DNA from: Escherichia coli
GTDB lineage: Bacteria > Pseudomonadota > Gammaproteobacteria > Enterobacterales > Enterobacteriaceae
Strand: one strand, 5' to 3'
DNA length: 64,000 nt
Assembly (NCBI RefSeq): GCF_044647545.1
Contig: NZ_CP172818.1
Shown: positions 3,897-12,730 of the stretch, piece by piece
How positions within the stretch are numbered: position 1 is the first letter of the stretch
Layout of the letters: the number at the start of each line of letters is the position of its first letter
Program-made: the position numbers and the translations under genes
The notes under the pieces: model-generated
The model's input: the letters and a program-made list of their open reading frames with translations, nothing else
Database searches by the model: none
What the model was told of the DNA's origin: nothing

Positions 3897-4054
3897 TGCC
3901 TTCATTAATGTGCGCGTGATCACACCAGCCGTTTAGCGCAACGATCATTGATACTCCCTATCTTTCAGTTCAACTCATAACTTATTGATATACATTTATA
4001 ATCTTCATGAATGTTTATATTCAGAATTCATAATCCTGAATTATATTAAATAGA

Positions 4055-4105
4055 TTAGAAACATTTTGAAATCTTTTAAATACATTTGTTACATGTAATC
4101 CTTAA
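4055..4105 (+). promoter_or_regulatory. OmpR-box-like repeats in porin promoter region
   Basis: gaaacattttgaaatc / tacatttgttacatgt resemble the ompC/ompF OmpR-binding TTTACATTTTGAAACAT motifs; about 100-150 bp upstream of porin start. Confidence 0.3.
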
Positions 4106-4206
4106 AATAAAATGAACTTCATAGAATAGTATCCAAATGTGCTTTTTTTTGGATAACGGCACTTATTGATATATTCATGAAGATTATAATCACAAGGGAA
4201 TACATA

Positions 4207-5322
4207 ATGAAAAGAAAAGTTCTGGCAATGCTGGTCCCGGCGTTATTAGTTGCTGGCGCAGCAAATGCGGCTGAAATTTATAATAAAGATGGCAATAAAG
4301 TTGATTTCTACGGCAAGATGGTTGGCGAACGCATCTGGTCAAATACTGATGATAATAACAGCGAAAACGAAGATACCTCCTATGCTCGTTTCGGTGTTAA
4401 AGGTGAAACCCAAATCACCAGCGAACTGACTGGTTTTGGTCAGTTTGAATACAACCTCGACGCCAGCAAGCCCGAAGGTGAAAACCAGGAAAAAACCCGT
4501 TTAACCTTCGCCGGTTTGAAATATAACGAGTTAGGATCATTTGACTATGGCCGTAACTACGGTGTTGCTTATGATGCCGCAGCTTATACCGATATGTTAG
4601 TTGAATGGGGTGGCGATTCCTGGGCTTCCGCTGACAACTTCATGAATGGTCGTACCAACGGTGTTGCAACCTACCGTAACTATGATTTCTTTGGCCTGGT
4701 TGATGGTCTTGATTTTGCGATTCAGTACCAAGGCAAAAACAGCAACCGTAGCACTAAGAAACAAAATGGTGACGGCTATGCGTTGTCTGTAGACTATAAC
4801 ATCAATGGTTTTGGTATCGTTGGTGCATATAGCAAATCTGATCGCACCAACGATCAAGTTGCCGATGGAAACGGTTCAAATGCTGAACTGTGGTCATTGG
4901 CTGCAAAGTATGACGCGAACAATGTCTACGCAGCTGTAATGTACGGCGAAACTCGTAATATGACTCCGGGTTCTATTGATACAGGTGTTGCCGATCGAGA
5001 AGGCAATACAATAATGCGTGATCAACTTATCAATGAAACCCAGAACTTTGAAGCGGTTGTTCAGTATCAATTCGACTTTGGTCTGCGTCCGTCCTTAGGT
5101 TATGTGTACTCTAAAGGTAAAGATATCAAAGGGGTACCTGGACATAGATATGTTGACGCTGACCGTGTGAACTACATTGAAGTTGGTACCTGGTACTACT
5201 TTAATAAGAACATGAACGTTTATACTGCATACAAATTCAACATGCTGGATAAAGATGACGCCGCCATTACTGGCGCAGCAGCTGATGACCAGTTTGCAGT
5301 TGGTATCGTCTACCAGTTCTAA
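4207..5322 (+). CDS. yedS: OmpC-family general porin (intact here)
   Basis: ORF with signal peptide [31 protein letters not shown] start of mature porin, C-terminal ...VGIVYQF; track ORF starts 30 nt upstream. Confidence 0.8.
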
Positions 5323-5365
5323 TCAGCCAACTCGCTGCGGCGTGTTACTGTAAAACTTAACACTA

Positions 5366-5402
5366 GCCTGAGTTCGTCCCTCATCGAACTCAGGCTTTTT
5401 TA
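5366..5402 (+). terminator. Rho-independent terminator downstream of porin gene
   Basis: GCCTGAGTTCG-tccctca-CGAACTCAGGC perfect 11-bp stem followed by TTTTTTATT. Confidence 0.7.
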
Positions 5403-5913
5403 TTGGCATTTCATCTCCATCTGCGGCACACGCAATTGCCGAAGCATATCGATACAGCACCTTACCCTGCCCCTCCTGGCACAATAACATCAACCAGCTA
5501 CTCTTCAAGCTAACACCCAAATGCATTTCTTTATGAATTAATCCGTAACAAACACGCTTCCCATATAGAAATATTTGCAAAAATAGTGCATGAAATAAGC
5601 TTTTTCTCTACCAATCCGCGATATAAATATTCATCAGCACCACAATATTCCACAGCACTAAATCTCTCCCCGCCACCCCGTACCTCTGATAATGGTCTAA
5701 AATCATTGAGGCCACTTGCGACGACGTTACTCAATAAGGAAAATTTGGCGTGAATAATATTCAACACCAGTGCAGCATCATCATTACATACTTACACCCG
5801 CCGACTACCGCTTTCGATATATTGACTCAATTTTCCAGCCTGGTTAAAAATAGCGACCAGCTCAGTCGCAAATATAGTGACTACCCTAACTAAGCAACAA
5901 TAAGGAATACACT

Positions 5914-6765
5914 ATGACTGTTCAAACAAGTAAAAATCCGCAGGTCGATATTGCTGAAGATAATGCATTCTTCCCTTCAGAATATTCGCTTAGCCAATAT
6001 ACCAGTCCTGTCTCTGATCTTGATGGCGTGGACTATCCAAAACCGTATCGCGGTAAACATAAAATTCTGGTGATCGCCGCGGACGAACGTTATTTGCCGA
6101 CCGATAACGGAAAACTGTTCTCGACCGGTAACCATCCGATTGAAACGTTGCTGCCGTTGTATCATCTCCATGCTGCAGGTTTCGAATTCGAAGTGGCGAC
6201 CATTTCCGGCCTGTTGACCAAGTTTGAATACTGGGCTATGCCGCACAAAGATGAAAAAGTAATGCCATTCTTTGAGCAGCATAAATCGTTGTTCCGCAAT
6301 CCGAAGAAACTCGCGGATGTTGTCGCCAGCCTCAACGCTGATAGCGAATATGCAGCAATCTTTGTTCCTGGTGGTCATGGCGCACTTATTGGTTTACCTG
6401 AAAGCCAGGACGTAGCTGCCGCTTTACAGTGGGCAATCAAAAATGACCGTTTTGTTATCTCCCTTTGCCACGGCCCGGCGGCTTTTCTGGCGCTTCGCCA
6501 CGGCGATAACCCACTGAATGGTTATTCCATTTGCGCATTCCCAGACGCCGCAGACAAACAAACGCCAGAGATAGGCTATATGCCGGGTCATCTCACCTGG
6601 TACTTCGGCGAAGAGCTGAAGAAAATGGGCATGAACATTATTAATGACGACATCACCGGGCGAGTACATAAGGACCGTAAAGTTCTCACCGGCGACAGTC
6701 CTTTCGCAGCGAATGCGTTGGGTAAACTGGCGGCGCAGGAAATGCTGGCAGCTTACGCGGGTTAA
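5914..6765 (+). CDS. hchA: Hsp31 glyoxalase/chaperone (DJ-1/PfpI family)
   Basis: 283-aa ORF MTVQTSKNPQVDIAEDNAFFPSEYSLSQYTSPVSDLDGVDYPKPYRGKHKILVIAADE... matches HchA. Confidence 0.85.
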   Translation: MTVQTSKNPQVDIAEDNAFFPSEYSLSQYTSPVSDLDGVDYPKPYRGKHKILVIAADERYLPTDNGKLFSTGNHPIETLLPLYHLHAAGFEFEVATISGLLTKFEYWAMPHKDEKVMPFFEQHKSLFRNPKKLADVVASLNADSEYAAIFVPGGHGALIGLPESQDVAAALQWAIKNDRFVISLCHGPAAFLALRHGDNPLNGYSICAFPDAADKQTPEIGYMPGHLTWYFGEELKKMGMNIINDDITGRVHKDRKVLTGDSPFAANALGKLAAQEMLAAYAG

Positions 6766-6872
6766 TCCCTGTTACGTTTTAATGTAAGCGCATAATCAAT
6801 CGCAGCCGCGTTAGTATTCACGACGTGGCTGCGTTTTTTCACGGTTAATTTATGGCGTACTGAAGCCCTATG

Positions 6873-8231
6873 TTAATTTCTTTGCGGCAACGTAATCCGG
6901 AACACATTATGCTTATTGAGATAGTGATACGTAGCACTTCCCCCATGTAATTCGGCAATCGCTTTGACTAAAGAAAGGCCTAGTCCCTGACCTACGGAAT
7001 GACGCGAATTATCTCCCCGCCAAAATCTACGGAAGAGTTTTTCAGGCTCATTAATTTTCGTTCCAGGGCTGGCGATATCAATATTAATAGATCCGTTGGT
7101 ATCAAGAAAACTGGTTATATGAATACGCGATTTTTCTGGTGAATATCTAATGGCATTAACAATAAGATTCGATAACATTCGTTGCAGTAAAATTTTATCC
7201 GCAAAGATTTGCTGATTGCACTCGACATTAAAGCAAATCTCTTTCTCGTCTGAAAGATATTCAAGATAGTCCAACAAATTTTCGACTTCCTTATTGAGAG
7301 AAAGCGAGTCCAGTTTCACCAAAACATTGTTTTTATCTGCCCTGGCAAGAAACAGTATGTTCTCTGTTAACCGCGAAATATTTTCCAGCTCTTCAATGTT
7401 ACCGGCAATTGTTTTTTGATATTCAGCGATACTTCTGGTTTGACTGAGCGTAACCTGATTCTGACCCAGTAATGCATTAATTGGCGTTCTAAGTTCATGA
7501 GCGAGATCGTCAGCAAACTGACTTAGACGCTCAAAATCTTTGACTAAAGCATGATGCATTTTATTCAACGCCTGCCCAAGAGGTTTTAGTTCTCTCGGTA
7601 ATGTGCTAACCTCAACAGGCTCCCGGCTATCGTTATAATTCAGCGCTTCCGTTACACCACTCAACTTTTTGATCTCTCGTAACCCCGTTCGGATTAACAG
7701 CGGACTTAATACTGAGCACAGTATAATGGCGACAATGCAAATTATAATGCTATTGATTTTATACTGTTCAAGCATGTTATGTCTGGCTGAAGCCAATTTA
7801 GCCACAGTAACCGTTAATGATGGCGAAACTTCATCAATATTAATTCGTAAAGCATCAATCTCAGTGTCATTAATAATGCTTCTGTAAATGCCAGCTGCGC
7901 TGATTGTCTCACTAGCAGGTATGTTATTTAACATGTCATCACTGACATTTGTCCGGTTAACAATTTTATTGATGCCATCACCATGAATGATCAAGATATC
8001 CTGGCTAACATCCATCATCCGGTTAAAGTATACAGGTAACGTATCTGGATTTACCCCATCAATTAACAACTGCTTGATCTGCGCTGTCCGGTTAATGAGT
8101 GTTGTATCATCGCGCCATTTCAACTCACTTGCCAGGCCATTATAGAGAGTCCAGACAATTCCAGCGCCAGCAACAGACAGCAGCAATATAAAAAGCAAGG
8201 TTAAACGGACGGTTATAGATAATCTTTTCAT
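6873..8231 (-). CDS. hprS: Two-component sensor histidine kinase
   Basis: 452-aa ORF with N-terminal TM, HAMP, H-box (LAHELRTPI) and ATPase G-boxes; adjacent to its response regulator. Confidence 0.8.
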   Translation of the reverse strand: MKRLSITVRLTLLFILLLSVAGAGIVWTLYNGLASELKWRDDTTLINRTAQIKQLLIDGVNPDTLPVYFNRMMDVSQDILIIHGDGINKIVNRTNVSDDMLNNIPASETISAAGIYRSIINDTEIDALRINIDEVSPSLTVTVAKLASARHNMLEQYKINSIIICIVAIILCSVLSPLLIRTGLREIKKLSGVTEALNYNDSREPVEVSTLPRELKPLGQALNKMHHALVKDFERLSQFADDLAHELRTPINALLGQNQVTLSQTRSIAEYQKTIAGNIEELENISRLTENILFLARADKNNVLVKLDSLSLNKEVENLLDYLEYLSDEKEICFNVECNQQIFADKILLQRMLSNLIVNAIRYSPEKSRIHITSFLDTNGSINIDIASPGTKINEPEKLFRRFWRGDNSRHSVGQGLGLSLVKAIAELHGGSATYHYLNKHNVFRITLPQRN

Positions 8232-8902
8232 TATTTTTTTACCGCTACGAATGAATAGCCCATCCCCCGGATTGTGGCGATTAGCTTTTCAGGAAAAGGA
8301 TCATCAACTTTTGCGCGGAGCCTGCGAATGGCGACGTCCACCGTATTGGTATCACTATCAAAGTTGATTCCCCAAATTTCACTCGCAATAACCGTTCTGG
8401 GTATAATTTCGCCTGCTCTGGAGGCCAGTAGCCAAAGTAACTGAAACTCCTTGCGCGTCAGTGTAATACTGATATTGTCCCTGCTCACACTTTGACTAAC
8501 AGAGTCCATTCTTAAGCCGCTGATTTCTAATGTTGAATTCAAAGCGTGATGTTGCCTTAATTGTGCCCGAACCCTTGCCAGCAACTCAGAAAATGAAAAA
8601 GGTTTTACCAGATAATCATTTGCTCCACTGTCCAACCCTCTGACTCTGTCATCGACAGAATCCCTTGCAGTAAGGCAAATAACAGGGGTTTGCTTTGCCG
8701 TTCTTAACGTTTGTAAGATCTGCCAGCCATCCATACCCGGAAGCATAATATCCAGAATGATCAATGCATAATCATCCTTCAGCGCAAGATAAAGCCCATC
8801 TCTGCCATCAGAAACGGCATCGATGACATAACCCGCTTCGGAAAGCCCCTGCGTTACCCACTCCTGGGTCCTTTGATTATCTTCAATAAGTAAAATCTTC
8901 AT
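8231..8902 (-). CDS. hprR: OmpR-family response regulator
   Basis: Internal start MKILLIEDNQRTQEW...; receiver plus winged-helix domains; track ORF has non-native N-terminal extension. Confidence 0.8.
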   Translation of the reverse strand: MKILLIEDNQRTQEWVTQGLSEAGYVIDAVSDGRDGLYLALKDDYALIILDIMLPGMDGWQILQTLRTAKQTPVICLTARDSVDDRVRGLDSGANDYLVKPFSFSELLARVRAQLRQHHALNSTLEISGLRMDSVSQSVSRDNISITLTRKEFQLLWLLASRAGEIIPRTVIASEIWGINFDSDTNTVDVAIRRLRAKVDDPFPEKLIATIRGMGYSFVAVKK

Positions 8903-9034
8903 GAAAATAATATGCCATAAATCATATGTTATAGAAACAGCCTGGTTCATTACAAAATTGTAATGCTGCTGTAAGGTTACCCTGGACGTTTTTTCGCTAT
9001 CCTCAAAACTCATTCACATGACAAGGATATAAAC

Positions 9035-9448
9035 ATGTTAAAGCGTTATTTAGTACTCTCGGTAGCAACGGCAGCATTTTCATTACCTTCTTTGGTTAAT
9101 GCCGCACAACAAAACATTCTTAGCGTGCACATTTTGAACCAGCAAACAGGAAAACCCGCTGCTGACGTGACAGTCACTCTTGAAAAGAAGGCGGATAACG
9201 GCTGGTTACAACTTAATACCGCCAAAACAGATAAGGATGGACGAATTAAGGCACTGTGGCCCGAGCAAACTGCAACTACGGGCGATTACCGTGTCGTATT
9301 TAAAACCGGGGACTATTTCAAGAAACAAAATCTTGAAAGTTTCTTCCCTGAGATCCCCGTTGAATTTCATATTAATAAAGTGAACGAGCATTATCATGTG
9401 CCTTTATTACTTAGCCAATATGGGTATTCAACCTATCGTGGCAGTTAA
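9035..9448 (+). CDS. hiuH: 5-hydroxyisourate hydrolase (transthyretin-like), periplasmic
   Basis: 137-aa ORF with signal peptide and C-terminal YRGS motif typical of HIU hydrolases. Confidence 0.8.
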
Positions 9449-9550
9449 TGCATAAATATGTAAAAGCAGATCTCTGCTACTGTTAGGGAGGACACTCCCT
9501 GACAGATTAACAGTAAACGGCTCTTGCTGGCTAACGACAAAAAAGTGTGA

Positions 9551-10561
<1,011 letters not shown>

Positions 10562-11197
10562 ATGCGTCTGACAGCAAAACAGGTGACATGGCTGAAAGTT
10601 TGCCTGCATCTTGCCGGATTGTTGCCGTTTCTCTGGCTGGCCTGGGCGATCAATCACGGTGGACTGGGTGCCGATCCGGTGAAAGATATTCAGCATTTTA
10701 CCGGTCGCACTGCACTGAAATTTTTGCTGGCGACCTTGTTAATCACACCTCTGGCACGCTACGCAAAACAGCCGTTATTGATACGCACTCGCCGCCTGTT
10801 AGGCTTATGGTGCTTTGCCTGGGCGACACTGCATTTAACCAGTTACGCATTGCTGGAGCTGGGCGTGAATAATCTGGCGTTATTAGGTAAGGAGTTAATT
10901 ACCCGGCCTTATTTAACGTTAGGTATTATCAGCTGGGTAATTTTGCTTGCGTTAGCGTTCACTTCAACCCAGGCGATGCAGCGAAAACTCGGCAAACACT
11001 GGCAACAGTTGCATAACTTCGTCTATCTTGTCGCGATCCTGGCCCCAATACATTATTTGTGGTCAGTGAAGATTATTTCACCGCAGCCACTCATCTACGC
11101 TGGGCTGGCGGTACTGCTTTTAGCCTTACGGTATAAGAAGTTGCTTTCCCTTTTCAACCAGTTACGCAAGCAGGTTCACAACAAATTATCTCTATAA
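10562..11197 (+). CDS. msrQ: Heme-binding membrane subunit of MsrPQ
   Basis: 211-aa polytopic ORF immediately downstream, start overlapping msrP stop. Confidence 0.85.
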
Positions 11198-11229
11198 CTT
11201 CATATTGCCAACAAAGTACGCGTTATCCC

Positions 11230-11261
11230 GGCCGGATGCGGCGCGAGCGCCCTATCCGGCC
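11230..11261. repeat. REP (repetitive extragenic palindromic) element
   Basis: GCCGGATGCGGCG...CCTATCCGGCC matches REP consensus. Confidence 0.6.
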
Positions 11262-11396
11262 CACACAGATCGCATCAAGTTATGTTTCGTTTGTCATCAA
11301 CCTTTCATCACCAGAATAATTTATTTTATTTCAATAAGATAGGAAAATACACCTGAGAAAACTATGCTCTCGTTTCCTAAGAGTTATTGCATTTCG

Positions 11397-11420
11397 CCAT
11401 ATGTTACAATATAACATTAT
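11397..11420 (+). promoter_or_regulatory. Zur-box-like palindrome in zinT promoter
   Basis: ATGTTACAATATAACAT resembles Zur consensus GAAATGTTATAWTATAACATTTC; about 35 bp upstream of zinT start. Confidence 0.5.
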
Positions 11421-11453
11421 ACATCATGTACATTAACTCTGGAGGAAACTGTT

Positions 11454-12104
11454 TTGGCGATTCGTCTTCATAAACTGGCTGTTGCTTTAGGCGTCTTTAT
11501 TGTTAGCGCTCCTGCCTTTTCGCATGGTCATCACTCACACGGCAAACCCTTAACAGAGGTCGAACAAAAAGCTGCTAATGGTGTTTTTGATGATACCAAT
11601 GTACAAAACCGAACGCTCAGTGACTGGGATGGAGTCTGGCAATCCGTTTATCCTTTACTGCAAAGTGGCAAACTTGACCCCGTCTTTCAGAAGAAAGCGG
11701 ATGCAGATAAAACCAAAACATTTGCTGAAATTAAAGATTATTATCGCAAAGGTTATGTGACAGATATCGAGATGATTGGCATTGAGGACGGCATTGTTGA
11801 ATTCCATAGACATAATGAAACAACATCCTGTAAATATGATTACGATGGATACAAAATACTCACCTATAAATCAGGCAAGAAAGGCGTTCGTTACTTATTC
11901 GAATGTAAAGATCCTGAAAGCAAAGCCCCTAAATATATTCAATTTAGCGATCATATAATTGCACCACGAAAATCATCTCATTTTCACATTTTTATGGGTA
12001 ATGATACCCAACAGTCTTTATTGAATGAAATGGAAAACTGGCCAACGTATTATCCATATCAGTTGAGTAGCAAAGAAGTGGTCGAGGAGATGATGTCTCA
12101 TTGA
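11454..12104 (+). CDS. zinT: Periplasmic zinc/cadmium-binding protein
   Basis: 216-aa ORF with signal peptide and His-rich HGHHSHG motif. Confidence 0.85.
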
Positions 12105-12191
12105 TTTTTTGCGCTGACTTCAATTATTTAACAGAACAGTGCCTGGTAGTAACGACAATAATTTACCAAGACAAATAAATAAGACAAACTC

Positions 12192-12225
12192 AGACACGCT
12201 CATGCTTGAGACGTGTCTTTTTTAT
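12192..12225 (+). terminator. Rho-independent terminator after zinT
   Basis: AGACACG...CGTGTCT hairpin followed by TTTTTTATT. Confidence 0.6.
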
Positions 12226-12730
12226 TAAAAAAACGAAAAACCACGCACAATGCTCCAATGTCTCCAGGAGCAAGTCATCTGTCATGGTAAAGCTAACCAG
12301 AAATATAGGTTAATTTTGGTATTTAAACCTTTTTTACTTGTTAGTATGATACAAAGGCTTTCAAAAAAGCTGGGAAATTCAACAACTCTTGGAAATTATG
12401 GACTTTGTCCCGCGGCTTTAATCTGACGGCCGCGTTCCTTTTTTGGCTCAATTATTGACCCCTTCTCTACGCAACTTCAGTTCCCGCCAGCAACTTTGCG
12501 GCAGTTTCATAGGATCAATGTCTAAAAGAATAATGGTGACCGATAAGAAAACGACTGAATAACTGTAGATTTTCGCTCGAAACCTTCCTGTCAGACCCAT
12601 AGCGAATCAAGTGCTGAATGTCACAGTATCGAACAGAAAACAGTGACGATCTAACCCTTCAAGAATATTCTACGATTGTTCTGTTTAGGAAAAGCAAGGC
12701 GGGAAGTCGGGAGATAAGTCATTGATAAAG

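Follow-up and report, generated by a model that had tools for sequence, protein, structure and literature searches.

A yodB-less allele of the intergenic region between zinT and serU in Escherichia coli

A 64,000-nucleotide stretch of Escherichia coli DNA (RefSeq assembly GCF_044647545.1, contig NZ_CP172818.1; hereafter the window) lacks yodB, the cytochrome b561-type gene that K-12 holds between zinT and the tRNA gene serU. Of the two forms in which the zinT–serU intergenic region occurs across the species, the window has the one without yodB. We put at roughly three in four the probability that this form is the older one and that a replacement brought yodB into a different E. coli lineage. 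The lineage of the window would then most likely never have held the gene; elsewhere in E. coli, about 185 bp around the hairpin that follows zinT would have been replaced by about 960 bp of unrelated DNA containing yodB, and both alleles would subsequently have persisted and been moved between phylogroups by homologous recombination of their flanks.

The K-12 gene order should not be assumed at zinT–serU, where K-12 itself probably shows the derived state. The locus offers an instance of an old intergenic polymorphism, with two alleles, that is reshuffled among phylogroups, probably along with the nearby island site at asnT. For the window strain, the consequence is one cytochrome b561 paralogue fewer: the family (PF01292) comprises CybB, YceJ, and YodB in E. 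coli, and YodB is the member absent here. The absence matters little: yodB belongs to the accessory genes, has no established physiological role, and is missing in some 42% of the complete genomes of E. coli. Public annotations already show zinT directly followed by tRNA-Ser in yodB-less strains, and the arrangement represents ordinary accessory-gene variation.

The zinT–serU spacer and its K-12 counterpart

Genes across the locus are ordered hiuH-msrP-msrQ-zinT-[spacer]-serU-mtfA-asnT-yeeJ. The same genes are annotated in relatives with 100% identity over the locus, including the annotated zinT genes of FDAARGOS_497 and WP5-S18-ESBL-08, each of which is a 100% match to zinT of the window. The features to which we refer are the following.

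11454-12104, + strand: zinT (yodA) coding sequence, 216 aa (open reading frame; Pfam PF09223 ZinT, E=3e-84)
12105-12730: spacer between zinT and serU, 626 bp
12105-12283: segment specific to the yodB-less haplotype, with a length of 179 bp in the window and 222 bp in the other genomes of this type
12192-12230, + strand: predicted intrinsic terminator of zinT, consisting of a hairpin (12192-12218) and a U-run (from folding and alignments)
12227-12250: patch private to the window, 24 bp replacing 66 bp (L002 1623-1688) of every other yodB-less genome
12284-12730: part of the spacer common to both haplotypes, 447 bp, 96% identical to K-12 (L001 4022-4468)
12322-12444, + strand: unit with a promoter-like TTTAAA-17-TATGAT (12322-12350), a hairpin (12411-12434), and a T-run (12435-12444)
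12731-12820, − strand: serU, tRNA-Ser(CGA) (ARAGORN; Rfam tRNA)
12914-13711, + strand: mtfA (yeeI), the right-hand flanking gene
13812-13887: asnT

The spacer is AT-rich, with a GC content of 39.1% versus 49.1% for the whole 64-kb window, and its open reading frames are short. The longest that lies wholly inside it encodes 58 aa (12250-12426, + strand), and the remainder encode 50, 39, 36, 35, 35, 31, and 31 aa; a 79-aa frame (12651-12890, − strand) enters the spacer by 80 bp, solely through read-through of the serU gene. The three longest spacer frames have no match in Pfam and in particular none to PF01292. An open reading frame of approximately 176 aa with a PF01292 domain is absent between zinT and serU, and no member of the cytochrome b561 family is encoded in the spacer or elsewhere in the 64-kb window. 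A tblastn search with K-12 YodB against the whole window also returned nothing (best E=0.28, outside the spacer), which rules out a remnant or a relocated copy of YodB inside the window. At E<=1, Rfam detected two tRNAs, a weak REP/naRNA4-like match, and chance matches overlapping serU between positions 11000 and 14000, and nothing else. Upstream of zinT, the msrQ–zinT intergenic region holds a weak, sub-threshold match of the naRNA4/REP type (11196-11261, − strand) and is the stretch most diverged from K-12, with 7–11 differences per 100 bp.

K-12 MG1655 has zinT (b1973), yodB (b1974), and serU (b1975) in succession at NC_000913.3 2,041,375-2,043,557, with flanking genes and their order as in the window; its yodB is a 531-bp gene of the PF01292 cytochrome b561 type. 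The original prediction, made from the sequence of the window, had placed yodB between zinT and serU in K-12 and had seen no such frame of 60 codons or more in the window, and it was correct on both counts, the list of open reading frames and the tblastn search agreeing on the second. The converse, that K-12 shares the non-coding spacer and keeps yodB elsewhere, was checked, and K-12 has yodB at this locus. The succession it had described, zinT followed by its terminator and then AT-rich non-coding DNA, likewise corresponds to what we find (the 12192-12218 hairpin, then low-GC sequence), and its estimate of about 500 bp up to serU comes close, since the spacer measures 626 bp in total and approximately 500 bp beyond the terminator.

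The zinT–serU spacer is 1442 bp long in K-12 and 626 bp in the window. When 12105-12730 was aligned to K-12, collinearity stopped at the zinT stop codon and resumed at window position 12284 (L001 4022), from where it continued through serU; 179 bp of the window (12105-12283) stand where K-12 has 995 bp including yodB. Outside this interval the two sequences are closely similar, at 97.2% identity for zinT, 96% for the serU-proximal 447 bp, and 100% for serU. Inside it, about 185 bp of the yodB-less variable segment have no significant match in the 995 bp of K-12 (z<=1.5), about 960 bp of K-12 are absent from the yodB-less haplotype, and only a hairpin of about 37 nt can be aligned. Because each haplotype holds DNA that the other lacks, the difference is a replacement, and neither a simple deletion nor a simple insertion. 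The variable segment of the window is not a subset of the K-12 sequence, as a simple deletion derivative of the K-12 arrangement would be. Of the "deletion or replacement" that had been proposed, replacement is therefore borne out by the DNA unique to each side, and deletion is probably wrong, E. albertii being collinear with the yodB-less type (see below).

The alignable hairpin belongs to a convincing predicted rho-independent terminator of zinT. In the window it is followed by UCUUUUUUAUU, with a folding energy of -15.3 kcal/mol (z=-3.99). It is the sole part of the variable segment that aligns to K-12 (78%; 32/41 positions by blastn, at offsets of 87-127 from the stop codon in the window and 93-132 in K-12), and E. 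albertii carries a homologous zinT terminator hairpin as well. The U-run 3′ of the hairpin differs between the haplotypes, being degenerate in K-12 (CTGTATATT) and TCTTTTTTATT in the window. We further observed no other terminator-like site between the zinT hairpin and yodB in the yodB+ haplotype (K-12, L001 3119-3160). Given the degenerate U-run and this lack of a second site ahead of yodB, zinT and yodB may be co-transcribed in K-12.

Two alternative states of the locus across E. coli

The original prediction had regarded the absence of yodB as possibly strain-specific, which the population data contradict. Using the 222-bp variable segment of the nearest relative as query, we detected the yodB-less segment at full length and 93-100% identity in 2292/5426 complete E. 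coli genomes (~42%). DNA of yodB is present in 3114 of the 5426, at a median of one copy and a maximum of two. The two counts are nearly complementary (3114 + 2292 = 5406/5426), indicating that the two states are essentially alternative alleles, and we take them to be mutually exclusive in any one genome. Carriers of the yodB-less segment include ST131, LF82, E2348/69, and ATCC 8739, and those of yodB include K-12, B strains, W, O157:H7, O111, and SMS-3-5. In a sample of 12 sequences, the spacer measured 668-669 bp in 6/6 yodB-less strains and 1427-1443 bp in five yodB+ strains. The window shows the succession of the yodB-less haplotype, in which the haplotype-specific segment directly adjoins the zinT stop codon and leads on to the 447 bp common to both types and then to serU, but its spacer, at 626 bp, is shorter than the canonical 668-669 bp. 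FDAARGOS_497, MS6198, ECONIH1, ST131, LF82, E2348/69, and ATCC 8739 share this haplotype and are annotated as gene-free between zinT and tRNA-Ser.

These observations bear on two explanations confined to the window strain. According to one, the strain underwent a deletion or rearrangement of its own. There is indeed one private change inside the spacer, 66 bp having become 24 bp at 12227-12250, yet it sits in non-coding DNA that never held yodB in this haplotype, and the absence of yodB is common to 2292 complete genomes, which refutes a private event as its cause. With the patch set aside, at least 12 complete genomes, FDAARGOS_497, MS6198, and ECONIH1 among them, match positions 4000-13800 of the window at 100.0% identity, and these genomes, identical over 9.8 kb, are likewise without yodB. 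We accord a private event next to no probability. The other explanation, hardly less improbable, holds that the missing gene reflects an assembly or sequencing artifact or that yodB resides elsewhere in the genome. In its favor, our view is limited to 64 kb of the genome, and the private 43-bp difference lies among homopolymer runs beside a hairpin, a setting prone to assembly error. Against it, the junction sequence recurs in thousands of independent assemblies, yodB+ genomes have one copy at the median and never more than two, and the counts of the two alleles are almost complementary. A study of ST410 moreover found the gene wholly absent from one clone (PMC10786849).

The flanks of the variable segment follow the state of yodB. 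In the 12 sequences, zinT and the shared 447 bp each split into two classes that track yodB state, not phylogroup. Within a class, identity is 97.7-100% for zinT and 97-100% for the 447 bp; between classes it is 96.9-98.2% and 94.4-96.6%, respectively. ATCC 8739, a group A strain, clusters with B2 strains, and SMS-3-5, of group F, clusters with K-12. Such a pattern would be expected of a long-standing dimorphism whose alleles move by homologous recombination. The variable region of sampled yodB+ strains is 98.4-99.4% identical (0.6-1.6% differences; 2.2% by blastn between K-12 and L090), from which we conclude that it is not a recent arrival. Raised divergence of the flanks as a signal of foreign import was considered and rejected; the flanks are ordinary, with 1-5 differences per 100 bp that increase slightly only toward the 3′ end of zinT.

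The gene asnT, at which the high-pathogenicity island (HPI) integrates, is located ~1 kb from serU. In ST410, the B5/H24RxC clone is HPI+ and yodB-negative, and its sister B4/H24RxC is yodB+ without HPI; the authors ascribed the HPI to recombination, and yodB served them as a clone marker in qPCR (PMC10786849). Together these observations suggest that yodB state and the asnT island may have been transferred jointly. A literature search for the phylogroup distribution of yodB returned nothing.

Outgroups and the source of the yodB cassette

We scanned for MtfA in one genome per species, obtaining 80 loci. With mislabelled E. coli contigs set aside, E. albertii was the only species other than E. 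coli among these loci with zinT within 5 kb of serU. E. albertii NBRC 107761 reads msrQ-zinT-567 bp-serU-mtfA, with yodB absent. Over the whole variable part, the spacer of this species can be aligned to the yodB-less type (287 nt, E=3.5e-22); the two are collinear, at only 64-74% identity, and E. albertii lacks the ~112 bp corresponding to 12333-12444. We compared segments with E. albertii against 500 shuffles. The yodB-less segments scored z=5.0 left of the hairpin and 5.1-8.9 right of it, with 0/500 shuffles as good, and the K-12-specific segments scored z=2.2, owing to one 15-nt block, and 1.0. Between the K-12-specific and yodB-less segments, z was <=1.5 (500 shuffles). These similarity tests suggest that the DNA unique to the yodB-less allele is old and that the DNA unique to K-12 is the newcomer. 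A global alignment of the variable region with cheap gap extension gave scattered matches and was excluded as evidence. The direction of the event rests on one outgroup in which zinT and serU are adjacent, E. albertii.

Two further candidates for an outgroup, E. whittamii and Escherichia sp. E1V33, proved uninformative, as their serU adjoins shiA-amn-yeeO instead of zinT. In these genomes (L007/L008 1-4950), yeeO, amn, and shiA precede serU-mtfA, so that the stretch separating the tRNA genes has a different arrangement from that of E. coli.

Not every position of the yodB-less allele follows this polarity. At the right breakpoint, a 16-bp interval (12291-12306) contains six sites at which the yodB+ and yodB-less classes show fixed differences. 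E. albertii shares the yodB+ state at 5/6 of these sites, so some positions of the yodB-less allele are not ancestral, and it carries a cluster of derived changes in this interval.

The main competing account reverses the order: yodB would be ancestral and deleted once or a few times, the deletion allele having spread, and the window would represent an old deletion that later diverged. Sharp breakpoints that begin directly at the zinT stop codon, a terminator hairpin kept in both alleles, the derived state of the yodB-less allele at 5/6 class-fixed sites beside the right breakpoint, and the presence of YodB homologues in several Enterobacteriaceae are all compatible with such a history. A deletion does not explain, however, the ~185 bp without a K-12 counterpart, which are exactly the segments common to E. 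albertii, and it would require an independent deletion with identical boundaries in that species. Nor is there any YodB-coding remnant, and YodB homologues of other genera adjoin neither zinT nor serU. On balance we regard ancestral yodB with later deletion as unlikely, and a gain of yodB, probably of horizontal origin and spread by recombination, as the better reading of the locus.

The distribution of YodB homologues agrees with a gain in part. Frameshifted E. coli copies aside, the protein database holds no relative of E. coli YodB between 99% and 77% identity, and the closest homologues outside E. coli, at <=77%, lie in unrelated contexts: a prophage of Citrobacter portucalensis, a different locus in Salmonella, and a position beside dinI in another contig. 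Homologues also occur in Hafnia, and those of Citrobacter, Salmonella, and Hafnia could alternatively reflect old vertical inheritance with repeated loss. In the C. portucalensis prophage (L086 4001-4540), a YodB-like cytochrome b561 gene of 76% identity sits between HNH/terminase and lysis genes, which fits a yodB-type gene that would travel as cargo.

The searches for a donor with the zinT-yodB arrangement found none. Similarity of K-12 yodB to the Citrobacter and other loci at the DNA level is confined to the coding sequence (70-72%), so homology of the flanks was rejected. A phage source for the cassette was also discarded; the sole matching phage record, KU052038, is a serU prophage entry that includes chromosomal flank. 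Within a set of partial YodB proteins at 84-92% identity, P0047 and P0059 were rejected as orthologues in other Escherichia species, being frameshifted or poorly assembled copies at the hiuH/msrPQ-zinT locus, and P0011 was set aside because it lies on contigs of ~1.5 kb that are 99% identical to the K-12 cassette.

The private patch, the shared spacer, and the neighboring tRNA sites

Outside the patch at 12227-12250, the variable segment of the window equals that of FDAARGOS_497, except for a T-run after the zinT stop codon that is one T shorter, and the shared 447 bp are identical to those of FDAARGOS_497 as well. The patch brings a net change of -43 bp and includes several substitutions, unlike a single clean deletion; it leaves the zinT terminator intact. 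Its version of the sequence occurs in 0/5426 complete E. coli genomes and had no match in two exact scans of a metagenome collection, and no template for it was found inside the 64-kb window. The patch could have arisen by a complex mutation, by import of a very short tract from a divergent lineage that has not been sampled, or through misassembly beside homopolymer runs; we consider a short import rather improbable.

The 447 bp shared by the two haplotypes contain a unit (12322-12444) that resembles a small transcription unit in layout. Approximately 130 bp proximal to serU (12601-12729) are kept in E. albertii too, at 84% identity, and a stretch of ~112 bp (12333-12444) is missing there, its position lying between CCTTTT(TT) repeats. 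Conservation of the unit inside the species looks suggestive: among 12 diverse strains of both haplotypes, 12322-12434 varies at only 2-3 sites, compared with 9 polymorphic sites in the 38 bp upstream and ~25 in the 175 bp downstream. The promoter-like site matches at 9/12 positions, which is at chance level in so AT-rich a region (4 found versus 4.2 expected), and the hairpin at 12411-12434 has a 10-nt loop and a z of only -1.9. The unit matches no Rfam family and has no annotation in NC_000913.3, and we found no literature on a transcript in the yodB–serU spacer. No terminator-like structure lies closer to yodB on its downstream side in K-12, which makes a plain terminator role, acting on read-through from yodB or zinT, the simplest reading of the predicted structure. 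It is doubtful that the unit is instead an unannotated small RNA gene or a small inserted cassette; the K-12 equivalent of such a candidate RNA would lie at about 2,043,095-2,043,181 on the + strand.

Prophages and islands are known to integrate at serU. Between yodB and serU lie Sp14 of O157 Sakai and an Stx1d prophage (PMC8190617, PMC9729726), and for genomes with serU insertions, the match to the window ends at 12744 or 12792. In the window the serU site is unoccupied, with mtfA directly on one side and the shared spacer on the other.

At asnT, the window differs from its close relatives. FDAARGOS_497 and WP5-S18-ESBL-08 have an integrase directly after asnT that is absent in the window; in the nearest relatives this position holds a tyrosine integrase (L002 3487-3668, L003 3593-3935), consistent with a high-pathogenicity island. 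In the window, asnT leads straight to yeeJ (13888-14126), and the site is empty despite 9.8 kb of identical upstream sequence. The yeeJ region that follows (14126-20636) appears split into open reading frames of 1511 aa (14126-18661) and 525 aa (19059-20636), the K-12 gene being longer at 7020 bp, and yeeJ is probably disrupted in the window.
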